NCBI GenBank assembly: GCA_036274695.1
Contig: DASUFF010000173.1
Span: 105-64,104, forward strand
Direction of reading: 5' to 3'
Source: a bacterium
Lineage (GTDB): Bacteria > UBA10199 > JACPAL01 > GCA-016699445
Length of the DNA stretch: 64,000 nucleotides
Shown here in pieces: positions 5,914-60,112 of the stretch; within the stretch, counting starts at the first letter, position 1, and the number at the start of each line of letters is the position of its first letter. The notes under the pieces were generated by a model. That model had not been told where the DNA came from and searched no databases. It saw nothing but the letters and a program-made list of their open reading frames with translations. The translations under genes and the position numbers were made by a program.

Positions 5914-6026
5914 TCACCCTCTCGGTTAGGCTAATTCTCTGAATTTACTTGCTTTTATTGTACTTGGGTTGAGCTATCTTGTCAAAAGGAAAGGGGATGA
6001 GGGGAATCGCCGGGTGGGGACGGGGA

Positions 6027-6353
6027 TTACGTCAGGAAATCGGTCGTTTCGACCGTATTGGAATCGCCTTTTTCGATCTCGGCCATCTTCTCTTCGTGGC
6101 GATCCGTTTCGGCCAAGCGGTCGTTCTTGTAATTGAGCCGGGCCTCGTCCTTGCGCTCGTCCAGTCTCTCCAGACCAAGCTCCAAGTTGGCGGCCGTGAT
6201 CTCGGAGCGGTTCATCGAGGATTCCATGATCCCAAAGGTCTGAACGCCCTGGGCGCCCAACGCCGTGATCATATTGTTGCTCGACGTCATTCCCAGCGCG
6301 GCCGTGTAATCGACCGGCGCGGGCATCGAAGCTGATGTTGTGGAACCGCCCAT
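6027..6353 (-). CDS. small uncharacterised protein, paralog family S copy 1
   Basis: 108 aa, N-terminus MGGSTTS..PAPVDY, conserved RHEEKMAEI and C-terminal TDF. 95% identical to the adjacent copy. Confidence 0.6.
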   Translation of the reverse strand: MGGSTTSASMPAPVDYTAALGMTSSNNMITALGAQGVQTFGIMESSMNRSEITAANLELGLERLDERKDEARLNYKNDRLAETDRHEEKMAEIEKGDSNTVETTDFLT

Positions 6354-6366
6354 AACCTTCTCCGTG

Positions 6367-6693
6367 TTACGCTATGAAATCCGTCGTCTCAACCGTGCTC
6401 GAATCGCCCTTTTCGATCGAGGCCATCTTCTCATCGTGGCGATCCATCTCGGCCAAGCGGTCGTTCTTGTAATTGAGCCGGGCCTCGTCCGCGCGCTCGT
6501 CCAGTCTCTCCAGACCAAGCTCCAAGTTGGCGGCCGTGATCTCGGAGCGGTTCATCGAGGATTCCATGATCCCGAAGGTCTGAACGCCCTGGGCGCCCAA
6601 CGCCGTGATCATATTGTTGCTCGACGTCATTCCCAGCGCGGCCGTGTAATCGACCGGCGCGGGCATCGAATTGGATGTGGTTGAACCGCCCAT
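6367..6693 (-). CDS. small uncharacterised protein, paralog family S copy 2
   Basis: Tandem near-identical duplicate of 6027-6353, 13-nt spacer. Confidence 0.6.
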   Translation of the reverse strand: MGGSTTSNSMPAPVDYTAALGMTSSNNMITALGAQGVQTFGIMESSMNRSEITAANLELGLERLDERADEARLNYKNDRLAEMDRHDEKMASIEKGDSSTVETTDFIA

Positions 6694-6720
6694 AAAAACC
6701 TCTTCTCCTCGTCGGACCCG

Positions 6721-7305
6721 TTACGGTCCGTAATAGCCGTTTTCGTACTTGGCCTTATCGGCCTCCGCCTTCGCCTTATCCGCATCCGCTTTTGCCTTAT
6801 CCGCATCCGCTTGCTTCTGGAACGTGTCCTGCCAATTCTGGTGCTGCTGCGAGTCCTTGTTCATCAAGTCGTCCCACTGCTTGCTAAAATCGGGACGGCT
6901 GCCATCCGCATACTCGGTCGCGTTGTTCCAGATCGCTCCGGGAGAATAGCTCCCGGAGCTATTCGCTAAAAAATCGGATACCTCAGTCGTCGTCGTGCCC
7001 TCGCGAGCCGCATCCACGTCGGCTCCGATCTCGGCCATCTTCTCCTCGTGGCGGTTTTCTTCTTCGCTCATCGACTGGATATAGTTCAGCTTGGCGATCT
7101 GCAGCTTCGTATCCAGCGATTCCAGGCCTTGCTCCAGATTGGCCGCGATCTGCATTTCGCGGTCCATACTGGCGGTCATGACGGCGAAGTTCTGGGCCAT
7201 GATCTGGCCCATGGCGATGGTCTTGTTGTTGTCCGACTGATACATCATCGCCTGCGAGTAATCGACCGGAGGCGGGTATGTCGTCGTACTGGTTGATCCA
7301 CCCAT
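6721..7305 (-). CDS. uncharacterised protein, paralog family S copy 3 with repeat-containing C-terminal extension
   Basis: N-terminal ~110 aa homologous to the S family (MGGSTSTTTYPPPVDY, NRHEEKMAEI). C-terminus carries KADADKAKAEADKAK heptad repeats. Confidence 0.6.
   Translation of the reverse strand: MGGSTSTTTYPPPVDYSQAMMYQSDNNKTIAMGQIMAQNFAVMTASMDREMQIAANLEQGLESLDTKLQIAKLNYIQSMSEEENRHEEKMAEIGADVDAAREGTTTTEVSDFLANSSGSYSPGAIWNNATEYADGSRPDFSKQWDDLMNKDSQQHQNWQDTFQKQADADKAKADADKAKAEADKAKYENGYYGP
6752..6814. repeat. 3 x 21-nt in-frame tandem repeat
   Basis: gccttatc(g/c)gc(c/a)tccgc(c/t)tt(c/t/g)(c/t) three times, encoding a DKAKA(D/E)A heptad. Confidence 0.7.
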
Positions 7306-7381: not shown

Positions 7382-7771
7382 TTAGGGGCCAGGCATCGAG
7401 AAACCGCCGTTGCTCGGGTCGTCGTTTCCGTTGTTCCCGAAAATATCGCCCATCACGTCCCAGCGACTCTCGTTCGAACCGCCGTCGCTGAACAGGATCT
7501 CGGAATCCATGTGTTCGGGAGGCGGGAGGCCTTCTGCGGTCGCTTCGGCGCGGCCGTTCACCGTCTGCTGCCATTCGAGCATATAGGAAAGGGCGTCCTC
7601 CGCTCCCTGGCCGGCCTCGTGCAGGGCCATCTGGGACATCATCGCGCCTTCGTTCTCGGCGCGCGCCTTCTCCATTTCCTGCTGCTGCATCTCCCAAAGC
7701 CGTTCGTAAGCCGCCATGACCTCGGCGTTATTGGCTGCGTTATGGGCATTGACGTCGTTCGTATCGGCCAT
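7382..7771 (-). CDS. hypothetical acidic protein
   Basis: 129-aa ORF on the locus strand. Weak RBS and no recognisable domain. Confidence 0.4.
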   Translation of the reverse strand: MADTNDVNAHNAANNAEVMAAYERLWEMQQQEMEKARAENEGAMMSQMALHEAGQGAEDALSYMLEWQQTVNGRAEATAEGLPPPEHMDSEILFSDGGSNESRWDVMGDIFGNNGNDDPSNGGFSMPGP

Positions 7772-8498: not shown

Positions 8499-8629
8499 AA
8501 GTGATTATAAAGCAATGCCGGTGCCAAGAGCAGGCCTCGACGGAGCCTTCCAACTATTTGATTTAATTATTATTTTTTGCGAAGAGGTTTGAGGGATCTT
8601 CCTAAAGTGGTGACCTAACCCCCCGAAAT

Positions 8630-26814: not shown

Positions 26815-26976
26815 ACGTCGTTTCCTCCCCATAGCGAACCTAAAGGAGCAAGATCGATACCAATTCGGAAAAGATAATTATTCGAAAACAAAGAGGTTTT
26901 TCGATCGAAAAAAGCCGGCCATTTTTCAAAATGAGAAAATTATCGAAATGAGAACGGAGACCGGGTCAAAACGATT

Positions 26977-46997: not shown

Positions 46998-47726
46998 GTG
47001 CCTCTCATCCCTTCACCTTCCTTGTCGCCCGCGCTGCTGGCCGGCTTTCGCCCGTCGTCCATCGACCGGATTTCCCCGTCGCAACCGGGCGTTTACTTCG
47101 ACGCGCCCGGCGCCGGGACCTCCGTCGTTCACGTCGGGAGGGACGTTCCGGCGCCCGTCATCGACCTTCTGCGCTTCATCCGCGACGAAGCCGAACGCGG
47201 GCGGAAGCGCAAGGGCGTCGAGACATCGTACCGCGAAGGCGGGATCGGCCCTAAGTGGTCGCTCCGTCCCGAAAGGGCGGAAGCGGGGTGCCTCCAGGCG
47301 AAAATCGTTCTAGGCGGCGTGGAAATGGTTTACGGCGGCCGCCCGCTGTGGATGCCGAATCAATTGGAAATCCGCCGGTCGCGGGCGTCCTTCGAAGGAC
47401 TGTTCACGGCCGTCCAATGTCTGACTTTCCTGCCCGGTTCCGACGCGCCGACGTGCCGGGCCGAATCCGGCCGGCGCACGCTCACCATGAAGGGCTTTGA
47501 CAACGCCGCCATGAAGCAACTTTCATGGGAATCGCTGTCGAAGGATCCGGCCTTCGAAGGCTGGCTGAAATCGACCGACCGGTTCGGCGGCGCCCTCCAC
47601 AACCGCGCCGGCGGCGAGCATCTCCGCGTGACCAGGGACGCGCAGCGCCTCACCGTCGAATGGAGACTCACCGTCTCCCCGTTGCCGGAGGCGGTACGGT
47701 CCCGTTGGGATTTCGTTCTCGAATAA
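46998..47726 (+). CDS. hypothetical protein
   Basis: 242-aa ORF. No recognisable domain. Confidence 0.4.
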   Translation: MPLIPSPSLSPALLAGFRPSSIDRISPSQPGVYFDAPGAGTSVVHVGRDVPAPVIDLLRFIRDEAERGRKRKGVETSYREGGIGPKWSLRPERAEAGCLQAKIVLGGVEMVYGGRPLWMPNQLEIRRSRASFEGLFTAVQCLTFLPGSDAPTCRAESGRRTLTMKGFDNAAMKQLSWESLSKDPAFEGWLKSTDRFGGALHNRAGGEHLRVTRDAQRLTVEWRLTVSPLPEAVRSRWDFVLE

Positions 47727-47860
47727 AAATCGCTTCTGTTCATTTTATTAGACAATTCTTGGAAAATTGACCTCAGTTAGTTGTGACTTTCTTCCTCCCG
47801 CAGCTACCGTTCCGAGAGTGAAAAACGTGCGAAATCAACCGGTTGAACCTTAGGCCTCCG

Positions 47861-47876
47861 TGGCATGAGCCTTGCT
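47861..47876 (+). promoter_or_regulatory. sigma-54 (-24/-12) promoter TGGCAT-gagcc-TTGCT
   Basis: Exact GG-N10-GC spacing. Lies 31 nt upstream of the SD+ATG at 47907. Confidence 0.5.
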
Positions 47877-47906
47877 TTTGCTTCTCTCCGAGAAGGAGAG
47901 CCAACC

Positions 47907-48395
47907 ATGTCCCACATATCTTTTTCCCACCGGCTGCCGGTCGACGACGACCCCGTCCTCGATGACATCCAGTCGCGCTTTCAGACGGGCGGTTCGGAGA
48001 TCGCGCAGATCATCGCCGCGGGCGAGGCCCAGGCCCAAGGCGGACGGGAGATCATGGGCGTCTTGACCGGCTTGATGGCGGGTTCCTCGAGTCCCGGCCA
48101 TGTAGCGACGGCCTCAGGAAGCAATCCCAGGCAGACGGGGGCCGCCGTCGCGGGGGGTCTCGGAGGGGCGGCGTTGGCGGGCGCTGCGGGGGCGGGCATC
48201 GCTCAGGCGGCGCAGAAGAACAAGGGCGCCAGGGAGCTGAACAAGCTCGAGAGAGGCGCCAAAAGGGATTTCCGTCAGCTGGAGCGCCAGACCGCCAAGC
48301 AGGAGCGAATCGATGCCCGGCAGGAACGGAAAGATCTGCAGGAACCGGAGATTATCCTGGACGCTTCCCGTGAGTGGCCGTCACCGTCGTCGTGA
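47907..48395 (+). CDS. hypothetical Gly/Ala-rich protein
   Basis: Start chosen downstream of the -24/-12 element with GAAGGAGAG SD. 3' end overlaps queF convergently by 44 nt. Confidence 0.4.
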
Positions 48396-48714
48396 TCCCG
48401 CCGCGCACGTTGAAAGCGCCGATCACTTCCATCCAGCGCGGGGCGCAGGCGGCAACCAAATCGTTGAGGATCAAGTTGGTGACCTTTTCGAAAAAATGGC
48501 CCTCGTTCCGGAAGGACCACAAATACAGTTTGAGCGACTTCAGCTCGAGGCAGCTCTTGTCCGGCACATAGCGGATGGTGATCGTCGCGAAGTCCGGCTG
48601 GCCCGTCTTGGGACAGAGGCTGGTGAACTCGGGGCAGACGGAGTCGATGACGTAGTCGCGACCAGGCTCGGGATTGGGGAAGGTCTCAAGCGTTTTCGAC
48701 GGCTGGGTACTCAC
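48352..48714 (-). CDS. queF: NADPH-dependent 7-cyano-7-deazaguanine reductase
   Basis: [11 protein letters not shown] (QueF Cys motif) and an E(S/L)K(S)LKLYL-like motif. Confidence 0.85.
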
Positions 48715-49252
48715 AGGGGCCTCCTAAGATGTTGTCGCGGTCGGACGCGTCTATTTTTTCGTAGGAAAAAGACCACAGCGAGCGGCCTTCCTTTTTCCAT
48801 TTGTCGGCGTAAAACGTCATAAACTCGACGCCATCGTCATGGGAGACGAAGGAAGCGGCGAACGCAGCGAAGACCTCCCGGATCTGCGCGACATAGTTCG
48901 GATCGTCGTGGGCCACATAGACCCTCCCGCCGGGCTTGAGCACGCGAAGGACCTCGCCCACGAATTTTTCCTGAAAGAGACGGTTCTTGGCGTGACGCTT
49001 CTTGGGCCAGGGGTCGGAAAAGAGGATGAACACCTTTTCGAATTCGGCCTCGGCGCATTGCTGCAGGAAGACCTTGGCGTCCATGCAGACGAGCTCGATG
49101 TTGGTCAAACCCCGCTTTTCGATCCGCGCGACCAGCTTCTCGCAGCGCTTCTCCTTCACCTCCACGCCCACGACGGCGGCCAGCGGGTTCTCAGCCGCCA
49201 GGTGGAACAAAAAATCCCCGCGTCCGGGGCCGATTTCCAAAAGCTTCTTCAT
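48686..49252 (-). CDS. trmB: tRNA (guanine46-N7)-methyltransferase
   Basis: EIGPGRG SAM motif, [10 protein letters not shown]. Confidence 0.85.
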
Positions 49253-49380
49253 GAGCCGGACAGTTTCGGGAATCGCGCCCGATCCGTCAAGGCCCCATCA
49301 AAGACCCCGCTTTGTTAAACCAGGTTAACGTTTTTCATCGAAAAACGCTCCGGGCTCCCTGATTTAGCTGGGAAATTCCC

Positions 49381-49396
49381 TGGCCGGGCCTTTGCA
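49381..49396 (+). promoter_or_regulatory. sigma-54 promoter TGGCCG-ggcct-TTGCA
   Basis: Perfect -12 TTGCA. GG-N10-GC spacing. 25 nt upstream of ATG with GAGGAGAG SD. Confidence 0.5.
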
Positions 49397-49420
49397 ATTC
49401 CAAAGTCCGAGGAGAGAAAC

Positions 49421-49774
49421 ATGGGCACGACGATCAACGACCATCGACAGGAGCAACCGATTTCGCCTTTCGATTACATGTCCGACAACAACAAGACCGT
49501 CGCCATGGGCCAGATCCTGGGAATGGAATTCGCCTTGCAGCAGTCGGCTCTCGACCGGGACATGCAACACGCCGCCGCCCTGGAATTGGGTCTCGAAAAG
49601 CTCGACACCAACCTGCAGGTGTCCAAGATGAACGCCATCCAGCAAATGTCCGCGGAAGAGAACCACCACATCGAGAAAATGACCCAGATCAAGCAGAAGC
49701 ATGCCGCCCTGGAGAGCAGCGGGCCCCGCTATGTCGAGATCGCCCCGCCCGAGTTTTTTACGGATTCCTTCTAG
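49421..49774 (+). CDS. small uncharacterised protein, paralog family S copy 4
   Basis: 117 aa. Shares P..DY, DNNKT.AMGQI, ANLE/ALELGLEKLD, NHH.EKM and C-terminal F.TD.F with copies at 6.0-7.3 kb. Confidence 0.55.
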   Translation: MGTTINDHRQEQPISPFDYMSDNNKTVAMGQILGMEFALQQSALDRDMQHAAALELGLEKLDTNLQVSKMNAIQQMSAEENHHIEKMTQIKQKHAALESSGPRYVEIAPPEFFTDSF

Positions 49775-49800
49775 CCCCGGTTCCTGCTAACAGTCGTCCG

Positions 49801-50724
49801 GTGGACGAGCCCCTCCAGCGCTACCTCGATTTCCTGAAGGTCGAAAAGGGCCTCTCGAAGAACACGCTCGCCGCCTACGGCACCGACCTGCACGCCTTCC
49901 ACGAATTCGCGAAGACCCGTAAAAAGACCACCTGGGCCGATGTTACCTCTCAGGACGTCTTGGAGCACGTCATGAAGCTCTCGGATGGCGTCGACAGCAC
50001 CGGAAGGGCTTCCGGCAAGTCGCTCAAGGCCCGTTCTCTCGCGCGGCATCTCATCGCCATCCGCGGCCTCTACAAATTCCTCCTGAAGGAAGGGGAGGTG
50101 AAGAAAAATCCCACCGCGCTGGTGGAGCTTCCCAAGGCGGGCAGGAAACTGCCGAACTTTCTCACATTGGACGAGATCGACAAAATTCTGAGCGTCTCGC
50201 ACGGCCGCTCCCAGGAAGGACCCGAAGGGGTCCGGAACGAGGCGATGATCGAGCTCCTCTACGCCACGGGCCTGCGCGTCTCGGAGCTGGTGAACTTGAC
50301 CGTCGACGACCTCCACATGGAACGAGGTTTCCTCAAGACAATGGGGAAGGGGAAGAAGGAGAGGATCGTGCCGATGGGCAAGTCGGCGATTCAAATCCTC
50401 CAGCTCTATCTCGCCACCGCCCGCGAAACGCTTCGTAAAGGCCGGTCGACGCAGGCCCTGTTCGTCACGCGGCTGGGCAAGGCGATGTCCCGCCAGATGT
50501 TCTGGAAACTCTTGAAAGACCTCGCCCGCAAGGCGGGCATCAAAAAGGATTTGAGCCCGCACGTCCTGCGCCATTCCTTTGCCACGCACTTGGTCCAGAG
50601 GGGCGCCGACCTCCGAAGCGTCCAGGCCATGCTGGGACACGCCGACATCTCCACCACGCAGATCTACACGCACCTGAACCTCGCCCATTTGAAGGGCGTC
50701 GCATCGAAACATCCGCGGGCTTAA
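49801..50724 (+). CDS. xerD: site-specific tyrosine recombinase XerD
   Basis: ELLYATGLRVSEL, HVLRHSFATHL and LGHADISTTQIYTH (R-H-R-Y catalytic residues). GTG start. Confidence 0.85.
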   Translation: MDEPLQRYLDFLKVEKGLSKNTLAAYGTDLHAFHEFAKTRKKTTWADVTSQDVLEHVMKLSDGVDSTGRASGKSLKARSLARHLIAIRGLYKFLLKEGEVKKNPTALVELPKAGRKLPNFLTLDEIDKILSVSHGRSQEGPEGVRNEAMIELLYATGLRVSELVNLTVDDLHMERGFLKTMGKGKKERIVPMGKSAIQILQLYLATARETLRKGRSTQALFVTRLGKAMSRQMFWKLLKDLARKAGIKKDLSPHVLRHSFATHLVQRGADLRSVQAMLGHADISTTQIYTHLNLAHLKGVASKHPRA

Positions 50725-51755
50725 ATTCGGCGAGAAACCAGCGAAGCGGCCTGCGGAGGTAAAAGGGAGATCCCGGCCTCCAACGCCTTTTTCCACTGTT
50801 TGCCCCCCTCGCGCGCCTCTTGAAACGCCTTCTTCAATTCCATCGGGCGCTCGTCCGCACACGCCGTAATCAGACGCTCGGCTTGAACCACGTCCTTTTT
50901 CTTTTTCGCGTCCTCCGTCACCGATCGTCGCTGGCTGACGGTCAGCTTATGGGCGGCGAAACGGCAGGGATCCGGGACCGTCACCGGAACGCCTCCCCAA
51001 GGGACGACGAGAACCGCCCGGATGGGATCCTTGAGAAGAAAGTCCAGGAAGGGAAGAGCCTCCGCTCCGACGTCCTCCATACCCACGGCTTTATAAGAAG
51101 GTCTCGGCTTTCCTCGTTGCGGGACGAGGAAATCGATCCGAAGCCCGTTCGGCGCGACGAAACGGCTGGCGAGTTGTTTCAAAGAAAGCGGAGGGATCGG
51201 CCGGAACTCTTCGGGCAAGACCTCTTTGGATTTCTTCAGGGGCCGGTCTTTCGGATGGAGTCGCGCGTCTCCGAGTACGTCGATATCGAGGGTTCGAACG
51301 GAGTTTTTGTCGAACAGCCGACCCAAAACGCCGGCGTAAGCCATGAAAGCGTAGGAACCGATCAAGACGCCGGAGCGATCGATGAGGCCGTGAGAGGACA
51401 ACGTCTCCAGAACCGCGCTCGAATCGGCGTCCGGGAAGGGAAGGCCGGCGCGTCTTAAGGCGGCGGAACGCCTTTCTTCGTCGGAACGCATTTTTTTGAT
51501 CAGCTCTTTCCTCTCCCTCCGCGCTTTGCGATATGCCTCCGCGCGCGCGTCGGACGCCGCATCCGAAGGCCCTTCATAGGTTTGTCGGGCTTGACCTTCC
51601 ACGTAACGTTGTCGGTACCAGTAGGATTTCCCCTTTACCGTTTTCCGGACGAGCGTCTCTTCCTGCGCTTCCGTCCTTTCGAGATCGAAACGCACGAAGA
51701 CCGCTTCCTGAAATTCCGCGAAGAGATTGCGAATGGCCAGGTCCAAGGTCGGCAT
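50721..51755 (-). CDS. hypothetical protein with pol-beta-superfamily nucleotidyltransferase-like motif
   Basis: GSYAFMAYAGV...(x20)...LDIDVL resembles the hG[GS]-x9-13-[DE]h[DE] NTase signature. Otherwise unrecognised. Confidence 0.4.
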   Translation of the reverse strand: MPTLDLAIRNLFAEFQEAVFVRFDLERTEAQEETLVRKTVKGKSYWYRQRYVEGQARQTYEGPSDAASDARAEAYRKARRERKELIKKMRSDEERRSAALRRAGLPFPDADSSAVLETLSSHGLIDRSGVLIGSYAFMAYAGVLGRLFDKNSVRTLDIDVLGDARLHPKDRPLKKSKEVLPEEFRPIPPLSLKQLASRFVAPNGLRIDFLVPQRGKPRPSYKAVGMEDVGAEALPFLDFLLKDPIRAVLVVPWGGVPVTVPDPCRFAAHKLTVSQRRSVTEDAKKKKDVVQAERLITACADERPMELKKAFQEAREGGKQWKKALEAGISLLPPQAASLVSRRI

Positions 51756-51756
51756 G

Positions 51757-51800
51757 GTTATACGTTATAATTTATAATTATCTACTTTTCAACGTATAAC
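51757..51800. promoter_or_regulatory. AT-rich operator-like palindrome at the start of the 50721-51755 gene
   Basis: Perfect 10-bp inverted repeat GTTATACGTT ... AACGTATAAC flanking a 24-nt AT-only spacer (ATAATTTATAATTAT...). AT-rich island in a 65% GC context. Confidence 0.45.
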
Positions 51801-51905
51801 TTTTCTTTCAGCCCGCTACCGGGGGACTCGCATAGATTGTGAATGCCTGACACTCACACTTTAACAACCCCATAAAAATTAGCCTCTGATTTCAAGCAAT
51901 TAGAT

Positions 51906-51921
51906 TGGCATCGTGATTGCT
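51906..51921 (+). promoter_or_regulatory. sigma-54 promoter TGGCAT-cgtga-TTGCT
   Basis: Same -24/-12 hexamers as the promoters at 47861 and 57368. Followed by a ~285-nt leader before the lipoprotein gene. Confidence 0.45.
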
Positions 51922-52204
51922 CCTTCACGTCTTCAACGAGGAGGCGAGCCTGAGAGCCGGCGGTGCGAACGAAAAAATCCAAGACGGACTCGGCGCGCTT
52001 TCCAGGGAATGAGGATTTAAAATTTAAAGTTTGAGGAGACCCGCTAAGTCCCAACCTCGCGATCATGGTGATTGCGGGGCGACTGCCCATCCCCCAGCGG
52101 GTCTCCTCTTTTCCGGTTGAAAAAGACGATGCAAAGTCTTCGATTTTCTTCTGGAAACTCGTTGCCTATACTGGTCGATAATAGAACCGAAGAAGGGCTT
52201 AACT

Positions 52205-53080
52205 ATGCGTTTGCGGTCGTTTTCATCTCTGAGCGTCCTCTTGGCGTTATCGCTCTTAGGCTCTTCCGTTCTTCTGACCGGCTGTCCGGCCGCCTTTGCG
52301 CCCACCAATCCTCTGGCCGCGAGCCGCGCGGATTCCAACGTAACTCCCGGCGGCGGGAATAATGAGGACTCCGGCGAGGCTCCGGCGTCCGTCGTCGATC
52401 CTTCCGGTCCTGCGGCGGACGGCGCGAATCCGGCCTCCGGCGGCCCGTTCGGGATTCCTTCCCAACAAGACGGCAAGGGCGGCGACATCGCCTCCAATGC
52501 GAACAGCGGTACGATCGCCGCGGCCGGCGACACGGCCGACGCGGGCAAAGAGAGGCTGACGATCACGTTCCGGAAGGTCCGCTACGGCCACAACCTGAAA
52601 GGCCAGCTGCCGGACCCTCCCGCCACGGGATTTCTCTCCGCCAACCCGCAAGGGCCGACCGATCTCCCGCTTTTGATCGGCTACCTCAGCGCCAACAGCC
52701 AGCTCCTGAAGGGTTATCCGGAAGGTTCGCAGATACGTTTGATCTTTTATCCGGAAGTCATCACCAAGCCGACGACTTATGTGGACGGCGGGCCGATGAA
52801 CGCCTTCAACGCCCCGGTCAAAGCCGCCGACGGACCGAATTTCCTCTTCAACGATCTCGACCTCGGCAAGGGAACGCTCGAAATCTATTCCTTCGAAGAC
52901 CCGATTTACGACGAGACGGGCAGCTACGCGATGGCGCACACCGCCGATTACCACGAGGGGGATTTGATTCCCTTCGCCGACCCGTCCCAGTTGACCGATT
53001 TCCTCAACGACACCCTGCACGTCCACCACGTCGGCACCTTCAAGGTGATCTACGGCTACGCGACCGGAAATCCGCACTAG
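52205..53080 (+). CDS. putative lipoprotein
   Basis: Signal peptide with LLTGC lipobox, Gly/Ala/Pro-rich linker, then a globular domain. Confidence 0.55.
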   Translation: MRLRSFSSLSVLLALSLLGSSVLLTGCPAAFAPTNPLAASRADSNVTPGGGNNEDSGEAPASVVDPSGPAADGANPASGGPFGIPSQQDGKGGDIASNANSGTIAAAGDTADAGKERLTITFRKVRYGHNLKGQLPDPPATGFLSANPQGPTDLPLLIGYLSANSQLLKGYPEGSQIRLIFYPEVITKPTTYVDGGPMNAFNAPVKAADGPNFLFNDLDLGKGTLEIYSFEDPIYDETGSYAMAHTADYHEGDLIPFADPSQLTDFLNDTLHVHHVGTFKVIYGYATGNPH

Positions 53081-53083
53081 AGA

Positions 53084-56000
53084 TTAACCCAGAGCCTTCT
53101 CGATCATCTCCTTGAGCGACGCCGCCCCCGGGTCGATGCCCGCCCGCTCCAGGCGGGCGTAGAGGCTCCGCCGCGAGATTCCCAAGGCCTTGGCCGCCTT
53201 GCCCTTGTGGTAGCACTGGTCGCGCAACGCCTTGAGCGTCTCCGTGACGATCGGAGGGAGAGAGTCTTTCGAAACCGCTACCGAAGCGGAACCGCCACTC
53301 CCCGAAAAAGAAGGGGACGAAGTCCCCCCCTCGAAGAGGGCCGGCTTGAACGACAGCGACGCCCGCGTGATCGTTCCTTTCTCCGCGAACAGGACGGCCG
53401 TCTCCAGGGTGTTCTGAAGTTCCCGAATATTACCCGGCCACGCATAGCCCATGAAGATCCGGAGGACACCGGGCTCGAGCTTCACCGGCGTCTTGCTCTC
53501 CCGTCCGCCGATCCTTTTCAAAAAATGCTCCGCCAGGAGCGGCAGGTCTTCCAGGCGTTCGCGCAGGGGAGGGAGCTTCACGGTGATGCCGTTCAAGCGG
53601 TAGAAGAGATCTTCGCGGAATTTTCCTTCGGCCACCAGCGCGCGCAGGTCCTTGTTGGAGGCCGAAACCACGCGGGCGTCCACGCGCACGGGCTCGGCGG
53701 CGCCGATGGGACGCACCTCGCCCTCTTGCAAGAAACGCAGGAGCTTGGCCTGGAGGTTCAGGCTCATGTCGGCGATCTCGTCCAAAAAGACCGTGCCGCC
53801 GTCGGCGTATTGGAGGAGGCCTTTCTTGTCGGAGACGGCGTGCGTGAAGGCGCCTTTCTTATGGCCGAAGAGCTCGCTTTCCAAGAGGGACTCGGGCAAA
53901 GCGCTGCAATTCTCGGTGACGAAGGCCTTCTTCGAGCGGCCGCTGTTGAAGTGCAGGGCGCGCGCGATGGCCTCCTTGCCGGTGCCGGATTCGCCGTAGA
54001 TCCAGACGGGGATCTTGGCGTCGGTGATGCGGTCGACGACGGAGAGGACCTCCACCATCTTGGGCGAGCGCCCGACGATGTCGCCGTATTCCTTCTTCAA
54101 GATCATCCGCGTGCGGTTGACCTCTTTCTGGAGGTTCTGCACCTCGCCTTCCTGTTCGCCGATCTTGACCTCCATCTCGGTGTTCCGTTTTTTAAGCCCC
54201 TCGATCATCTTCGCCTTTTGAAGCGCGAGGGCCGCGATCCCGGCGAAGGCCTTCAGCACGTCCAAAATCTCGCCCTCGAAGAGGCCCTTTTGGAAACGGT
54301 GGTCGAGATAGAAGACCCCCAGGACGCCATCCGGACCGGTGACCGGCAGGGCCAGGATGGATTTGAGCTGGAGGAGCTGGACGCTCTTGGCCTCGCGAAA
54401 GGCCGGATCGATCATCGCGTTGTCGGTGACGACGGCGTCTCCCGTCTGCAGGGCGCGGCGCACCGCGGAAAGGCTGAAGCTGTAGAGATCCGTGCCGAGG
54501 TCCTCCTTCGCGACGTTCCTCGCCACCGCGATGTCGAATCCCGGAATGGGGCCGTTCGGAACGTCGCTGCGGAGGACCAAAAATCCGTTCTCGGCCCCCG
54601 CGATCCTCATCGCCGAGTCCATCAGGCGCTCCAGCACGCGCTGCATGTCGTCCTCTTTCAGGAGGGATTGATTGAGTTCCATCAGAATGGGCAGGACCTG
54701 GGTCATGGGACTGTCTCCTTTCGGTTTTTTCTCGGCGGGAACGGCCGATCGGTTTTTCCAATCCCCGCGTTCCACGAACGTCACCTGGAATTCGGTCGGC
54801 AACGACTCGTAGATCCGTTGGAGGACGTCGGCGGGGAGGGCGTCGGTCCCGTCGCGCAGGGCCGCGAGCCTCTTGGACGTTTCGGCGGCGAGAGCGCGGC
54901 CGTTGGGCCCCGCGGCTTCCATCTCCTTCAAGGCCTCCGCGGCCTTGGCGAAGCGTCCGAGCGAGGCCTCCGTCACCGCCAGCTCCTTCCGGTTCTGGAT
55001 CCATTCCTCGATCCCGCCGATGAAACGCAGGACGTCCCCCGCGCGCCGGAGCGATTCCCAGGACGCGGCCAGATGGCCACGGGCTCGCTCGAGCACGCCC
55101 TGGTTGTTGTGGGCGACGGCCTGGCGCAGGTCCGAGCCCGCTTCGCGCGCGAAGCCTTCCGCCGCCGCGTAGGCCGACGCCGCCGGTTCGATCTTTCCGT
55201 GATCGAGGGCGAGGTTGCCCTCCTCGAGGGACGTCCAAAAAAGCCCTTCCAAATGATGCTCGGAGGCGTAAAGCGCCCGCGCTTCGCCGAGCAGCCGGCG
55301 GGCCGCCTCCCAATCGCCGCCCCGCGAGCGGAGGGTGGCCAGGGTTCTCAAGGCCTCGGCCTTGAGCGCCGGAGCGGCGTCCGAGACCCCGATCTTTTCC
55401 AGACAGGCGACGGCCTCGGGCAGGCGCCCGCGCCGGAGCTCTTCGAGTCCGAGCAGCGAGAGGGCCTTCAGGCGGAAGGGACGCGTGCCGCGCTCGTCCG
55501 GCAAGCCGACGCCGGTCTTGAGCCTCTCGATGGCCTCGTCGCTTCTTCCCAAGTTCTGGCAGGCCTGGCCGGTCACCAGCCAGTACTTGGCGGTGCGCAC
55601 GGCGTCCGTTTCATCGCCGGCGCGAAGGTGAAACCAGTCCTCGCAGGAGGTCAACGCTTCTTCACGGCGTCCGAGGTCGTTCAAGAGGTTGGTCCTCATT
55701 CTTAAGAGGCGCGATTTTTCGTCGGGCTTCGAAACGAGGGGCAGGACGCGCTCGACCAAGGCCAGCGCCGGGGCGTAGCGGCGCCGGCGGCGGAGGTCTT
55801 CGGCGATCTCGCGCGCCTCGGGACCGGCGGCGTCGGCGTCGCCCGATGCGACGGCCCGAATCAGAGAGGGCGGGACGAAGCGATCGTCCAAGGGCCTCTC
55901 GCGCGAGGCCTGGTCCCTCAAGAAACTCCTCCACTCGCCGGCCAGACGGCCCTCGCGCACCAGTTTTTTTTGGGCGAGGAAGCGGATGCGCTCCACGAGC

Positions 56001-57265
56001 CGCGCCGGATTTCCCGCCGTATCCTCGAAGAGAGTCGCCGCCGCCTCGGCCGCGGCCCGGGGGCCGAAGGCGAGGGCGATCAGCGATTCGGTCTCGGCCC
56101 CGTCCAGATCCCTCAAGGCGACGTCGATCGTTTCCGGATTTTTCAGCAGCTCGCGGACGAGGCGGGCGAAGGGTTCCGGCTGGGCGTCATCGCTCCACGT
56201 CACGAGGACCAAGCCCGGCTTGGGTTCGCGAAGGCGGTGATAGAGGCGGGAGAGCTCGTCGGGGGCGAGGAACTCCGCGCCGTCGAAGACCTCCACCGGG
56301 ACATCGCGAAGCCGGCCTTCCAAAGACACCTCGCGCGCGAACCGCGATTTGCCGCTGCCGGAGGGACCGTGAACGGCCAGGAGGAGCGGCGACGACGAGG
56401 CGGCTGCGCGGGAAAGTGCGTCCTGGATTTTCTTCCAGGCGTCCTCGGCGCCGATCATGCGCGCCGGATGGAACTCCGAGAGGGCGGCGGCCCCGTCGGA
56501 ACGCCCGGTCTGCAGGGCGTTCCGGATTTCGCGGGCGCCCGAAAAGCGCTCGGAAGGGGAGACGGCCAGCATCCGTTCGATCACCCGCGCCGCGAGCGGA
56601 TGAGCGGCGGCGAACGCGGGGGCGGATTCGAGGAAAGGATCGGCCGGCCGTTCGAGGAAATCCCGCAGGCTCCGGCACCCGAGACGCGGATGCCGCCCGG
56701 CCAGCGCTTCGTAGAAAACGGTGGCGTACGAAAACAGGTCGCCCGAGGGCAGGCGATGCCCGTCGATCCGCTCCGGCGCCATGTAGGGGAGGGTGGCCAT
56801 CTCCAGGCGGGCCTCGTCGCCGAAGCCGATGGAGAGGTCCACGAGGCGCAGCCGTCCCTCGCGGTCGATCAAAAGATTGGAGGGGGAGAGATCGCCGTGG
56901 AGGAGGCCCTGCGTGTGGAGGGCGTCCAGCGCGTCCAGGCCTTCGAGGAACCAGTGGAGGATTTTTTCCGCGCCGGCGCCGCGCGCGGCGTTCAGGATCC
57001 CGTCCCCGTCCACGAACTCCATCCAGTAGGCGGGGCCGCGGTCGTCTCCGAAAATCTCGCGGCTGTCGGTGGCGAACCCCAGGACCGGCACCAACGAGGG
57101 ATTTTGAAGACGGGTCAGGACGCGCACTTCATGCGCGAAGACGGCGGACGAACGCCCCTTGGGCAGGAGCTTCAAGGCGACACGCCGGCCTTCCGGAGAG
57201 ATCGCATCGAAGACCTCGCCCATGCCGCCGGAGGTCAAAGCCGTCAGGGATGTCCAGGCACACAC
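53084..57265 (-). CDS. multidomain regulator: Ser/Thr protein kinase, P-loop (STAND-like) NTPase, TPR repeats, GAF, sigma-54 interaction AAA+ domain, Fis-type HTH
   Basis: Kinase HGDLSPSNLL..DLS(DFG-like). GPSGSGKS P-loop. Long TPR region. GAF domain. GESGTGKE/GAFTHA/ESELFGH sigma-54 activator motifs. C-terminal AKALGISRRSLYARL. Confidence 0.8.
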   Translation of the reverse strand: MCAWTSLTALTSGGMGEVFDAISPEGRRVALKLLPKGRSSAVFAHEVRVLTRLQNPSLVPVLGFATDSREIFGDDRGPAYWMEFVDGDGILNAARGAGAEKILHWFLEGLDALDALHTQGLLHGDLSPSNLLIDREGRLRLVDLSIGFGDEARLEMATLPYMAPERIDGHRLPSGDLFSYATVFYEALAGRHPRLGCRSLRDFLERPADPFLESAPAFAAAHPLAARVIERMLAVSPSERFSGAREIRNALQTGRSDGAAALSEFHPARMIGAEDAWKKIQDALSRAAASSSPLLLAVHGPSGSGKSRFAREVSLEGRLRDVPVEVFDGAEFLAPDELSRLYHRLREPKPGLVLVTWSDDAQPEPFARLVRELLKNPETIDVALRDLDGAETESLIALAFGPRAAAEAAATLFEDTAGNPARLVERIRFLAQKKLVREGRLAGEWRSFLRDQASRERPLDDRFVPPSLIRAVASGDADAAGPEAREIAEDLRRRRRYAPALALVERVLPLVSKPDEKSRLLRMRTNLLNDLGRREEALTSCEDWFHLRAGDETDAVRTAKYWLVTGQACQNLGRSDEAIERLKTGVGLPDERGTRPFRLKALSLLGLEELRRGRLPEAVACLEKIGVSDAAPALKAEALRTLATLRSRGGDWEAARRLLGEARALYASEHHLEGLFWTSLEEGNLALDHGKIEPAASAYAAAEGFAREAGSDLRQAVAHNNQGVLERARGHLAASWESLRRAGDVLRFIGGIEEWIQNRKELAVTEASLGRFAKAAEALKEMEAAGPNGRALAAETSKRLAALRDGTDALPADVLQRIYESLPTEFQVTFVERGDWKNRSAVPAEKKPKGDSPMTQVLPILMELNQSLLKEDDMQRVLERLMDSAMRIAGAENGFLVLRSDVPNGPIPGFDIAVARNVAKEDLGTDLYSFSLSAVRRALQTGDAVVTDNAMIDPAFREAKSVQLLQLKSILALPVTGPDGVLGVFYLDHRFQKGLFEGEILDVLKAFAGIAALALQKAKMIEGLKKRNTEMEVKIGEQEGEVQNLQKEVNRTRMILKKEYGDIVGRSPKMVEVLSVVDRITDAKIPVWIYGESGTGKEAIARALHFNSGRSKKAFVTENCSALPESLLESELFGHKKGAFTHAVSDKKGLLQYADGGTVFLDEIADMSLNLQAKLLRFLQEGEVRPIGAAEPVRVDARVVSASNKDLRALVAEGKFREDLFYRLNGITVKLPPLRERLEDLPLLAEHFLKRIGGRESKTPVKLEPGVLRIFMGYAWPGNIRELQNTLETAVLFAEKGTITRASLSFKPALFEGGTSSPSFSGSGGSASVAVSKDSLPPIVTETLKALRDQCYHKGKAAKALGISRRSLYARLERAGIDPGAASLKEMIEKALG

Positions 57266-57367
57266 ACCGCAGAGGATACTATCAAACTGTGAATGTGTCT
57301 ATCGCCCGTGACACTCACATGAGGGCATCGAAAAGGCTCTCTTCTTTTAAAATCAAGTAGTTATGCT

Positions 57368-57383
57368 TGGCATCCTGATTGCT
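57368..57383 (+). promoter_or_regulatory. sigma-54 promoter TGGCAT-cctga-TTGCT
   Basis: 27 nt upstream of ATG 57410 with GGAAGGAG SD. Divergent from the kinase-EBP gene. Confidence 0.55.
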
Positions 57384-57409: not shown

Positions 57410-58078
57410 ATGGGAAACGACAAGTGCGACGCCTTGGGAGGAATCAGCGGTCCGGACGTGTGCGCCTTCGACACGCCGGAGGGCGGGTTCACCGTCCAGG
57501 CCCTTTCCTGCGATAAGAACGCCTTCGCCCAGGTTCAAGACGCGGCATTTACGAAAGAGGATCTGGCGACGATCAGCCGTGTCACCAACTCGAACGCCCT
57601 CGTCACCTTCGCCCTTTGCACCGACTCCTACCGCAGCGGCGTCCTCGGCATCGCCCCGGACGCCCTGGCCAAGCAGCACGACTCCAGCCTGAAGCTCTTT
57701 CGGCAAAAATGCGGGACGTCCGGCATGGACAAGGCCAAGTGCGACGCCGTCGACAAGACCGCCGAGGAGAATGCCCCCGAGAAGGAGCATTGGATCTGGG
57801 AATGGTTCCGGGAAATGCGCACGGGCATCTTCTTCGCCGCCGGCGCCATCCTCTTGGACCGGATTTTCCGGAAGCCGACCGACAAGGGCGGCGGCCAGGG
57901 GTTGAGTTCCGAGACTCCGACGACGACCGTCACCGCCGAAGATTTTAAAAAACTTTACGCCGACCCGATGTCCGCCGGCGCCCTCGACTTCGCCGCCGGT
58001 TCGGCGCCGTCGGCGAAAACCTTAATCGCCCCCGTCGCAATGCCCTTGGGAGGGGCGATCCTCGTTCCGGCTTATTGA
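57410..58078 (+). CDS. hypothetical Cys-rich protein with central TM segment
   Basis: 222 aa. N-terminal domain with 8 Cys, hydrophobic segment GIFFAAGAILL. No signal peptide. Confidence 0.5.
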   Translation: MGNDKCDALGGISGPDVCAFDTPEGGFTVQALSCDKNAFAQVQDAAFTKEDLATISRVTNSNALVTFALCTDSYRSGVLGIAPDALAKQHDSSLKLFRQKCGTSGMDKAKCDAVDKTAEENAPEKEHWIWEWFREMRTGIFFAAGAILLDRIFRKPTDKGGGQGLSSETPTTTVTAEDFKKLYADPMSAGALDFAAGSAPSAKTLIAPVAMPLGGAILVPAY

Positions 58079-58093
58079 AAAGGAAATTCCACC

Positions 58094-59551
58094 ATGGGCA
58101 CTTCGATCCTATTTCCCAATCCTCTCATAAACGCCGGCGGCCTCGGCATGCGCTCGGTCGCCGTGACGGCGGACGCTCCGTTCGGCTTCGCCAAGGCGAC
58201 CTTCGAGCCGGTGGCGGGGACGGGCGGGCCGGCGGGCCCTCAGGTCCCGGGCGCGTTCAGCATCACCGCCGGCCTTTTGACCAGCGTTTTGGCGCCCAAA
58301 CTTTTCGACAAATACGTCACGCAGGACCTGCTGGTCCGTAACGGACTTCTTCCTCAAGGAGCGGCTCCGTTCGTAAACCTCGGCGGCTCCCTGGGCATGG
58401 CCGAACTGCTCCGCGCCGGGGGCTTAAGCCCGGTCGGCGCCTTGGGCGCCTTGAAGATGATGCCGCTGCTCACGGGACTCCGCCTCTTCCTAGATCCCGT
58501 CGCCTTCGATCTCCTGGGAGTTCCGAGGGACGCGTTCACGGAAACCGCCGTCGACGCCGCCTCCATGGCGCCTCTCTTTTTCGCCCAACAGTCGCCCTTG
58601 GCCGCGAGCCTCTTGGGACTCGGGGAAGGGGCCACGCTCCTCACTCCGGGGGTCTGGGTTTCGGCGCTGGGGAAGGTCAAGCTGATCGACGTCGCCTCCG
58701 GCCTCGGCGTGACCTACGGCGCCCGGCTCTACTTCGGCCTGTCCAGCGACCGCCCGGACCTCGATACGGGCCTTTGGGATTTGAGCGTCGCCAGTGTTCA
58801 CGAAACCGTTTCGGAGGAACTCGCCCTCGGCAAATATTTGCCCAACCTCGCGGCCGCCTCCGTCACCATCGTCTCCCTCTGGAGCGACTATGTCTGGAAG
58901 GTGGACGCCGCCGACTCCATGCGCGCCAAGATCGAGGCCAAATTTGATCAGAAGATGGAAACCATCCGCTCCCAGGCGGACGCCCTCGGAAAATTCCTCG
59001 ATCAGAACCTGGCGGGTGCCGTCGCACAAAACATCCGGCAGGACCCGTCCGGCGGCTTCTCCGTCGATTGGGACGGCGTCCGTCGCTCCGTCAAGGCGTT
59101 CTATCACTCGAGCGACAACAAGGAGCTGGGTCCCGCCTACGATTTCGTCGAGGGAAACCGTGAGCTTCTGGGATTCAAGGACGCCCTCACCCTGACCGCT
59201 CTGGTGGACCGGGACGGAAACATCGCCGACCTGGAGGACTTCAAAAAATATTTTTACGTCAAATTCGCCCTCGAGAGACGGGAACTGGAAAAGGATCTCG
59301 AGGCGAAGGCCTGGGAACTGGAAGTCGTGGAAGAGGAGGACGGCCGGGTCCGCCTCAAAACCCCCGAAGCTCCGGACGGCGCCGAAGGAGAGGGCGGCTT
59401 TTCGGCCGAAAACCCCGATTCGCCGGAGGCGTTTTATTTCCGGCAGGTCGCCTTCGTAAACGGCGACGCCGCCGCCCTTTCGCGGCGCATTCTGCTTTTG
59501 TCGATCCTCGAAGGACTTTTGAAGACCGAAGGAGACTCCCATGCCCGATAA
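58094..59551 (+). CDS. hypothetical protein
   Basis: 485 aa. Gly/Ala/Leu-rich N-terminal half and charged C-terminal half. 16-nt spacer to the upstream gene. Confidence 0.5.
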   Translation: MGTSILFPNPLINAGGLGMRSVAVTADAPFGFAKATFEPVAGTGGPAGPQVPGAFSITAGLLTSVLAPKLFDKYVTQDLLVRNGLLPQGAAPFVNLGGSLGMAELLRAGGLSPVGALGALKMMPLLTGLRLFLDPVAFDLLGVPRDAFTETAVDAASMAPLFFAQQSPLAASLLGLGEGATLLTPGVWVSALGKVKLIDVASGLGVTYGARLYFGLSSDRPDLDTGLWDLSVASVHETVSEELALGKYLPNLAAASVTIVSLWSDYVWKVDAADSMRAKIEAKFDQKMETIRSQADALGKFLDQNLAGAVAQNIRQDPSGGFSVDWDGVRRSVKAFYHSSDNKELGPAYDFVEGNRELLGFKDALTLTALVDRDGNIADLEDFKKYFYVKFALERRELEKDLEAKAWELEVVEEEDGRVRLKTPEAPDGAEGEGGFSAENPDSPEAFYFRQVAFVNGDAAALSRRILLLSILEGLLKTEGDSHAR

Positions 59552-60095
59552 CAAGAAAATAGTTCCGTCCGCGCCCGTCTTCGGAGGCATCTGCACGCCG
59601 GACGGGGATTATGAAATCGCCCCGGAGGATACCGGAAGCGGCGGGATCAAGACGGTCGACACGTACATCGCCCCGGCCTTCAAGGACCTTCACGTCCTGA
59701 TCGAAGAATTGATCGTCGCCGAGTTGCAGCGCCCGAAATACGACTCCGTTTGGAACGAATACGGCTTCGCGGGCATCGTGGACCTGCACGACCGGCTGCG
59801 AACGGAGCTTAGGTCCGAGTTCAGCGCCCGCATGGGCTGGTTGGGCGTCGCGGAATTCCTGGACGCGCCCGCGGGCTCTTATCAGGACATGGCCTCCTCC
59901 CTGGAAGCAGCGGCTCAATACGTCTTCGACAAGGTTCCCCCTCAAGCGCCTCCACGAGGCGCCGACCGCCTCAAACCCCGCTTCGAAGACCGGTCGAAGG
60001 CCTTCGAAAAAGGCGAAAGCGCGAGGAAAGTCTCCGAAGACGCGCTCCAGACCAAAAGGGGAAAACCGGAAGCCCGCGAAAAACTTTTCAAATAA
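59541..60095 (+). CDS. hypothetical protein
   Basis: 184 aa. Overlaps the upstream gene by 11 nt, suggesting translational coupling. Confidence 0.45.
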   Translation: MPDNKKIVPSAPVFGGICTPDGDYEIAPEDTGSGGIKTVDTYIAPAFKDLHVLIEELIVAELQRPKYDSVWNEYGFAGIVDLHDRLRTELRSEFSARMGWLGVAEFLDAPAGSYQDMASSLEAAAQYVFDKVPPQAPPRGADRLKPRFEDRSKAFEKGESARKVSEDALQTKRGKPEAREKLFK

Positions 60096-60112
60096 CGACG
60101 AAGGAGCGATTT

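Follow-up and report, generated by a model that had tools for sequence, protein, structure and literature searches.

A short open reading frame (ORF) between trmB and xerD in the genome of an uncultured bacterium raises two questions: whether it is a gene, and what starts its transcription. Here we address both within a stretch of 64,000 nucleotides, hereafter called the window. The ORF runs from an ATG at 49421 to a TAG stop at 49772-49774 (49421-49774, plus strand), encodes 117 aa, and its product is entered in GenBank as HEX5038338.1 (VFX30_14370). Its GC content by codon position (0.57/0.32/0.82) shows the pattern of the annotated neighbours, dN/dS against the ortholog in locus L001 is about 0.08 (pS 0.70, with synonymous sites near saturation), and an HMM built from the family alignment matches it at E 1e-45. 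Because of this codon-position GC, the low dN/dS and the relatives found by profile, we count the ORF as a genuine protein-coding gene.

The peptide motifs by which the sequence-only reading had placed the ORF in a small-protein family (PFDYMSDNNKTVAMGQI, ALELGLEKLD, NHHIEKM and a C-terminal EFFTDSF) were all found when its sequence was read. Its standing as the window's fourth family member is borne out by the HMM match and by tblastn, which finds exactly three paralogs in the window, with core identities of 61%, 35% and 35% (E 1e-25, 3e-9 and 4e-10), at 7305-6027 on the minus strand and so, as had been stated, about 42 kb away. The flanking genes are likewise those that had been named: NCBIfam models identify TrmB upstream and divergent from the ORF (48686-49252, minus strand; TIGR00091, E 5e-36) and XerD downstream (49801-50724, plus strand; TIGR02225, E 1e-105). 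No GTDB species representative has a GMP synthase more than 71% identical to that of the window, the best matches being from an unclassified “bacterium” and a “Deltaproteobacteria bacterium” MAG, and the host therefore belongs to a deep, uncultured lineage.

A HMMER profile search of 1.84 billion representatives returned 67 matches at E<=1e-3 (53 at E<=1e-10), mostly 48-202 aa long, and the family amounts to about 60 clusters among these representatives; a word-seeded search of 5.8 billion proteins recovered only 9 clusters. Six large proteins in the profile search (786-2981 aa, two of which were read) are not homologs: they contain Kelch-type repeats and appear among the matches because their ...YDSxNNKVVLFGG... 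sequence mimics the family's SDNNKT motif. No family member was found in 185,579 GTDB species-representative genomes or in IMG/VR viral contigs, and for this reason a phage origin is not supported. Pfam, NCBIfam, PHROGs and PADLOC gave no match to the ORF or its paralogs, no Pfam family matches the core of any of 52 family members, and a literature search returned no description of the small-protein family or of the kinase-fused activator architecture considered below.

The alignment of these 52 sequences is too diverse for a pattern search, and the conserved core (SDNNKT ... DRxMQ ... LELGLEKLDT ... AEENRHxEKM) is detectable by profile. Alignment with family members leaves S21, N23, R46, A51, L54, E55, E59, D62, E79, H83 and E85 invariant. 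AlphaFold2, run with the 52 sequences, models residues 16-99 as one uninterrupted helix (mean pLDDT 80, above 90 in the centre), on which a hydrophobic stripe (L54, L58, L61, L65, S68, Y72, M76) continues into the invariant polar residues E79 and H83. A Foldseek search of the PDB with this model found no match, as expected of a single helix. The length of the predicted helix suggests a coiled-coil oligomer as the most likely form of the product. Taken with the model, these results describe an undescribed, rare and lineage-restricted family of small proteins, each predicted to be built on one helix of about 80 residues.

Ahead of the core, sequences are hypervariable even between close orthologs, and the length of this N-terminal region ranges from 2-3 aa in L001 through 20 aa in the window's ORF and 47 aa in P0075 to a 66-aa glycine-zipper segment in L010. 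Hydrophobic N-termini with GxxxGxxxG are present in 13 of 71 members and absent from the window's four copies. They are similar to those of Gly-zipper_Omp, Gly-zipper_YMGG and Rick_17kDa_Anti proteins, to which there are a few weak Pfam matches, but the feature is limited to the variable N-terminus of a minority and the conserved core is unrelated. Near the C-terminus, 34/71 members have the motif [D/G/E]-h-P-[P/A/E/S]-P and 23/71 an acidic-Phe-hydrophobic motif. A Met-Gly start occurs in 33/71 members (P0001-P0074), a share far above our expectation for bacterial proteins, and a short subfamily begins MGG[STDN]. Host N-myristoylation of these N-termini was considered and rejected: members disagree at position 6, and orthologs do not share a conserved N-terminus.

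Promoters of the sigma-54 class follow the consensus TGGCAC-N5-TTGCW, with GC at -13/-12. Upstream of the ORF, TGGCCG at 49381-49386 and TTGCA at 49392-49396 compose a -24/-12 element on the plus strand (49381-49396, TGGCCG-GGCCT-TTGCA), which we recognised by pattern match and ortholog conservation and which ends 24 nt before the ATG. The sequence-only reading had described the GG-N10-GC spacing as correct, and it is exact (GG at 49382-83, GC at 49394-95, one helical turn); the Shine-Dalgarno sequence that it had named, GAGGAGAG (49409-49416, plus strand), is also present, its GGAG standing 6 nt before the ATG, and an SD-like GGAG occupies the same place in L107, L010, L003 and L013. Against the extended consensus the element scores 9/11, with TGGCCG deviating from TGGCAC/T at two positions (the flank is CG, not AC). 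Because the usual sigma-54 geometry places GC at -13/-12, transcription is predicted to start near 49407, with a leader of about 14 nt. Read-through from upstream is excluded because trmB is divergent.

Matches of this kind also arise at random. For the strict pattern TGGC-N7-TTGCW the window has 5 occurrences where 0.73 would be expected, and matches of 9/11 quality (GG and TG fixed) number 12, against 7.8 +/- 2.7 in Markov-1 simulations of the window; another 9/11 match, unconserved, falls at 49524-49539, within the ORF. Taken by itself, the ORF's site is not clearly above chance; what makes it significant is where it stands and that it is conserved. In four orthologous trmB-ORF-xerD loci (the window, L107, L001 and L010) TGGC and TTG[C/T]A are invariant while the flanks diverge: the seven bases between the blocks read CGGGCCT, GGCGCTT, CGCGCCT and ACCTGAC, respectively, and TTGTA replaces TTGCA in L010.

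This comparison was extended to the rest of the family by locating its genes in the fetched loci with the family HMM and scanning the 400 nt upstream of each. In unrelated contexts, sixteen family genes whose 5' region is non-coding are preceded by a site scoring 9/11 or better, situated 12-57 nt (mostly 23-28) before an in-frame ATG. The consensus of the 16 is TGGCAY-N5-TTGCT, and the background rate of sites, a figure that includes the 16 family sites themselves, is 1.6e-4 per nt. Family genes that have no site sit behind a same-strand upstream gene (L009, L011, L016, L017, L018, L026 and the window's tandem copies). The exception is a paralog in L007, which is free-standing and has only a TTGTA variant 112 nt upstream. 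Almost every free-standing family member would, on its sequence, have a sigma-54 promoter in front of it. Conservation in the four orthologous loci and the element shared by 16 family genes support the earlier proposal of a sigma-54-type promoter at canonical distance from the ORF. From the sequence, position and conservation of the element at 49381-49396 we infer promoter activity, and we regard this putative promoter as real. Among these loci we also observed four in which the ATG follows TTGCW by only 12-13 nt (L001 3484, L012 259, L021 3096, L022 957), which would imply nearly leaderless mRNAs from sigma-54 promoters.

The window's three tandem paralogs (6027-7305, minus strand) occupy 7305-6721 (194 aa, the copy with 61% core identity), 6693-6367 (108 aa) and 6353-6027 (108 aa), and no -24/-12 site was found within 400 nt upstream of them. 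They belong to a string of genes running from 8498 to 6027 on the minus strand, with gaps of 55, 76, 27 and 13 nt; at its head stands the window's best sigma-54 site, TGGCAC-CGGCA-TTGCT at 8511-8526 (minus strand; 11/11). Because the same-strand gaps are short, we take the tandem copies to be probably co-transcribed from this site. The order gene A, gene B, family gene, family gene recurs in L016. Gene B (7382-7771, minus strand, in the window; 464-835 in L016) has a GLPPPE / GIPPPT motif that resembles the D-h-P-P-P-E near the C-terminus of the family, the proteins being otherwise unrelated. Beyond the string, a near-consensus sigma-70-type promoter, TTGACA-N17-TACAAT at 5957-5985 (minus strand), precedes gene 5913-5191 and suggests that this gene stands outside the upstream sigma-54-driven string.

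On its other side the ORF is closely followed by xerD, which begins 26-27 nt past the stop codon, a distance fixed in all orthologous loci. No recognisable promoter or terminator was found in the gap between them, and xerD either has its own unseen promoter nearby or is co-transcribed, at least partly, from the predicted sigma-54 promoter of the ORF. We also observed that the last nine codons of the ORF (PEFFTDSF-stop) and the following TTCCTGCTA, together 49742-49790, are nearly invariant in nucleotides, also in L001, L010 and L107. In these codons 7/9 third positions are invariant, yet comparable peaks occur inside xerD and the excess is not significant; the segment may contain a hidden xerD promoter or a coupling signal, for which the excess is statistically not clear.

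Further upstream, an imperfect palindrome GTTAA-N6-TTAAC at 49314-49329, unique in the window, lies at about -93 to -78 from the predicted start. Its arms are conserved and its centre is variable among the window, L107 and L001, which makes it a candidate activator (enhancer) binding site, for trmB on the divergent side just as well as for the ORF. From the palindrome towards the promoter element there follows a perfect 8-bp inverted repeat, CGTTTTTC-ATC-GAAAAACG (49329-49347), partly kept in L107 and not kept in L001. A different inverted repeat, TGTGAATG...CACTCACA, occurs at only two places in the window (51838-51858 and 57288-57319), from each of which a strict sigma-54 site (51906-51921 and 57368-57383, respectively) lies about 60-80 bp downstream, and is probably an enhancer, or regulon mark, of the adjacent activator. 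It is not present upstream of the ORF, whose activator may be this one or another.

That activator is a protein of 1393 aa encoded at 53084-57265 (minus strand), 3.3 kb downstream of the ORF, with Pfam matches to Pkinase, AAA_16, TPR, GAF, Sigma54_activat (PF00158, E 5.5e-69), AAA_lid_14 and HTH_8. A partial copy of a second sigma-54 activator, recognised by homology, lies at the window's end (62685-63998, minus strand), and the AAA+ segments of the two are 78% identical. PADLOC matches to the complete protein were set aside as domain-level only, and rpoN is not among the genes of the 64-kb window. The complete activator is not divergent from the ORF copy. Full-length homologs of it (43-50% identity) are divergent from and adjacent to a family gene in L008, L019, L021, L022, L024 and L025, and in these six loci the activator start lies 100-125 bp from the -24 element. 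A homolog in L003 is about 1 kb from the family gene, and the contig of L001 ends in a 92%-identical activator C-terminus whose relative position matches that of the window's activator. VFX30_00100, from the MAG that also contains the window, has a product identical to a protein encoded in L008; the host therefore carries five family genes or more, and such an activator is paired with one of them. The tie between the family and a sigma-54 regulon that had been proposed from the window alone is strengthened by the two activators, by four strict -24/-12 sites that stand before genes in the window besides the ORF's, and by the divergent homologs in six loci.

Three other explanations were weighed against this evidence. 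The ORF's -24/-12 match might be fortuitous, the gene being read, possibly together with xerD, from a housekeeping-type promoter that escaped recognition, located between trmB and the ORF. About eight matches of 9/11 are expected in the window, an unconserved one falls within the ORF itself (49524-49539), and xerD, 27 nt downstream, needs expression; all three fit a coincidence. Against this, nothing in the proximal upstream region is invariant among the four orthologs except the blocks TGGC and TTG[C/T]A, the element recurs at the same distance before 16 family genes in unrelated contexts, and a scan of 49100-49900 found no sigma-70-like site, and we therefore consider coincidence very improbable. 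The other two explanations concern what the protein does. It could be a miniature ferritin-like coiled coil in which E55, E59, E79 and H83 of antiparallel helices form a carboxylate/histidine metal site. H83 and E85 are invariant, with little or no variation at E55 (in a 12-sequence alignment), E59 and E79; moreover, the only PDB sequence matches are six ferritin entries, where AEENRHxEKM aligns with EEREHAEKL of helix B, which we take to carry ferroxidase ligands. The family motif S-x-EE-x-x-H-x-EK-[LM], followed by D-[IL]-x-x-P-[ED], is likewise reminiscent of ferritin helix B and of the EncFtn ExxH site. The similarity is not significant, however: it is confined to one aligned helix (profile E 0.25-3.6 against the PDB, hhalign probability 16%), no four-helix bundle is predicted, neither Pfam nor Foldseek detects a ferritin-like domain, and there are no iron-related genes in the neighbourhood. 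We find a ferritin-like role highly doubtful.

Equally concerned with function is the thought that the small helical protein works on its cognate activator as PspA does on PspF, binding the giant protein and modulating its ATPase, possibly by docking an acidic, proline-rich C-terminal motif on the activator's TPR region. This would be a specialised case of sigma-54 control of the gene, not an alternative to it. The layout of the six loci, in which an activator is divergent from a sigma-54-dependent long-helix gene at 100-125 bp, resembles pspF-pspA of Enterobacteria, and some family members have membrane-seeking N-termini; the single long helix of the model, the [D/G/E]-h-P-[P/A/E/S]-P motif in 34/71 members and matches to the presumed IHF consensus upstream of the sites at 8526 and 57368 point the same way. 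The resemblance is nonetheless one of layout and not of sequence. The family has no relationship to PspA/IM30 (no match to PspA_IM30 or to any other Pfam family), and PspF is without a sensor domain whereas the activators linked to the family carry some 1000 residues of sensor of their own. The family is, furthermore, multi-copy, and many copies, including the ORF and the tandem trio, are not beside an activator. Such feedback is a tentative idea, and on balance an unlikely one.

Very probably, in our view, ORF 49421-49774 belongs to an undescribed small-helix family and is expressed, its transcription starting at a sigma-54 promoter and being driven by an activator. In this sequence of events, sigma-54 holoenzyme would form a closed complex at 49381-49396. 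A sigma-54 promoter stays silent as long as its closed complex has not been remodelled by an enhancer-binding protein that hydrolyses ATP. The activator, probably a giant kinase-STAND-TPR-GAF-AAA+ protein of the kind genomically linked to the family, may have its binding site about 85 bp upstream, in the conserved palindrome GTTAA-N6-TTAAC, and, in response to a signal, would hydrolyse ATP and open the promoter. A short-leader mRNA (predicted 14 nt, with a strong Shine-Dalgarno sequence) would then be translated. The product might act as a coiled-coil oligomer, either a signal-induced effector or a feedback partner of the activator pathway, and in paralogs with glycine-zipper N-termini it could perhaps be membrane-associated.

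A bolder proposal, which we hold to be doubtful, is that the family constitutes the dedicated output, and possibly a feedback ligand, of an undescribed signalling module consisting of a giant Ser/Thr-kinase-STAND-TPR-GAF sigma-54 activator and a small single-helix protein, of which each genome of an uncultured, deltaproteobacteria-like soil lineage would contain many paralogous pairs; a Glu/His metal site formed between molecules may be part of the helix.

The predicted promoter belongs to a textbook class, and the small-protein family is undescribed. With known -24/-12 promoters the element shares the GG-N10-GC spacing, the TGGC/TTGCA blocks, the distance to the start codon, a palindrome at about -85 and HTH_8 AAA+ activators nearby; it differs in the -24 flank, which in the ORF's ortholog group is CG and not AC/AT. 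The activator architecture differs from that of other sigma-54 activators in that the Pkinase-AAA_16-TPR-GAF region N-terminal to the AAA+ domain is unusually large. What is unusual is that an orphan family keeps one promoter class across paralogs and uncultured genomes and is repeatedly linked to one exotic activator architecture. This linkage offers a testable handle on what the giant activators sense and on what the small protein does. For annotation, about 60 clusters of “hypothetical proteins” can be treated as one family, and promoter-based prediction could define its regulon.

Several observations concern other sigma-54 sites. The products downstream of two of those in the window (57410-58078 and 47904-48395) were considered as possible family members and are not. 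Five genes without a Pfam match follow the 57368 promoter (57410-62682, plus strand), the first two products of which begin MG. Between the site at 51906 and a lipoprotein-like gene at 52205 lie about 280 nt (51922-52204) without a convincing ORF; this segment could be a long leader or a small RNA, and Rfam returned no RNA family over 47000-53000. Two further sites are plausible: TGGTATCGATCTTGCT at 26847-26862 (minus strand), 14 nt before the start of a beta-propeller gene (26832-25021), and TGGCATCTTTCCTGCA at 61255-61270 (plus strand), before an internal ATG at about 61300 of ORF 61174-62682. Sequences matching WATCAANNNNTTR, which we take to be the IHF-site consensus, lie upstream of the sites at 8526 and 57368 (AATCAAATAGTTG at 8551-8563, minus strand, and AATCAAGTAGTTA at 57351-57363, plus strand), and related TTCAA-N4-TTA sequences precede the -24 element in L008, L021, L024 and L025. 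In L009 (569-6155) the neighbours of P0008 comprise several coiled-coil lipoproteins that share a G-C-E-Y-Y lipobox region, and two genes upstream of P0008 have sigma-54-like sites of their own (488-502 and 1384-1398).
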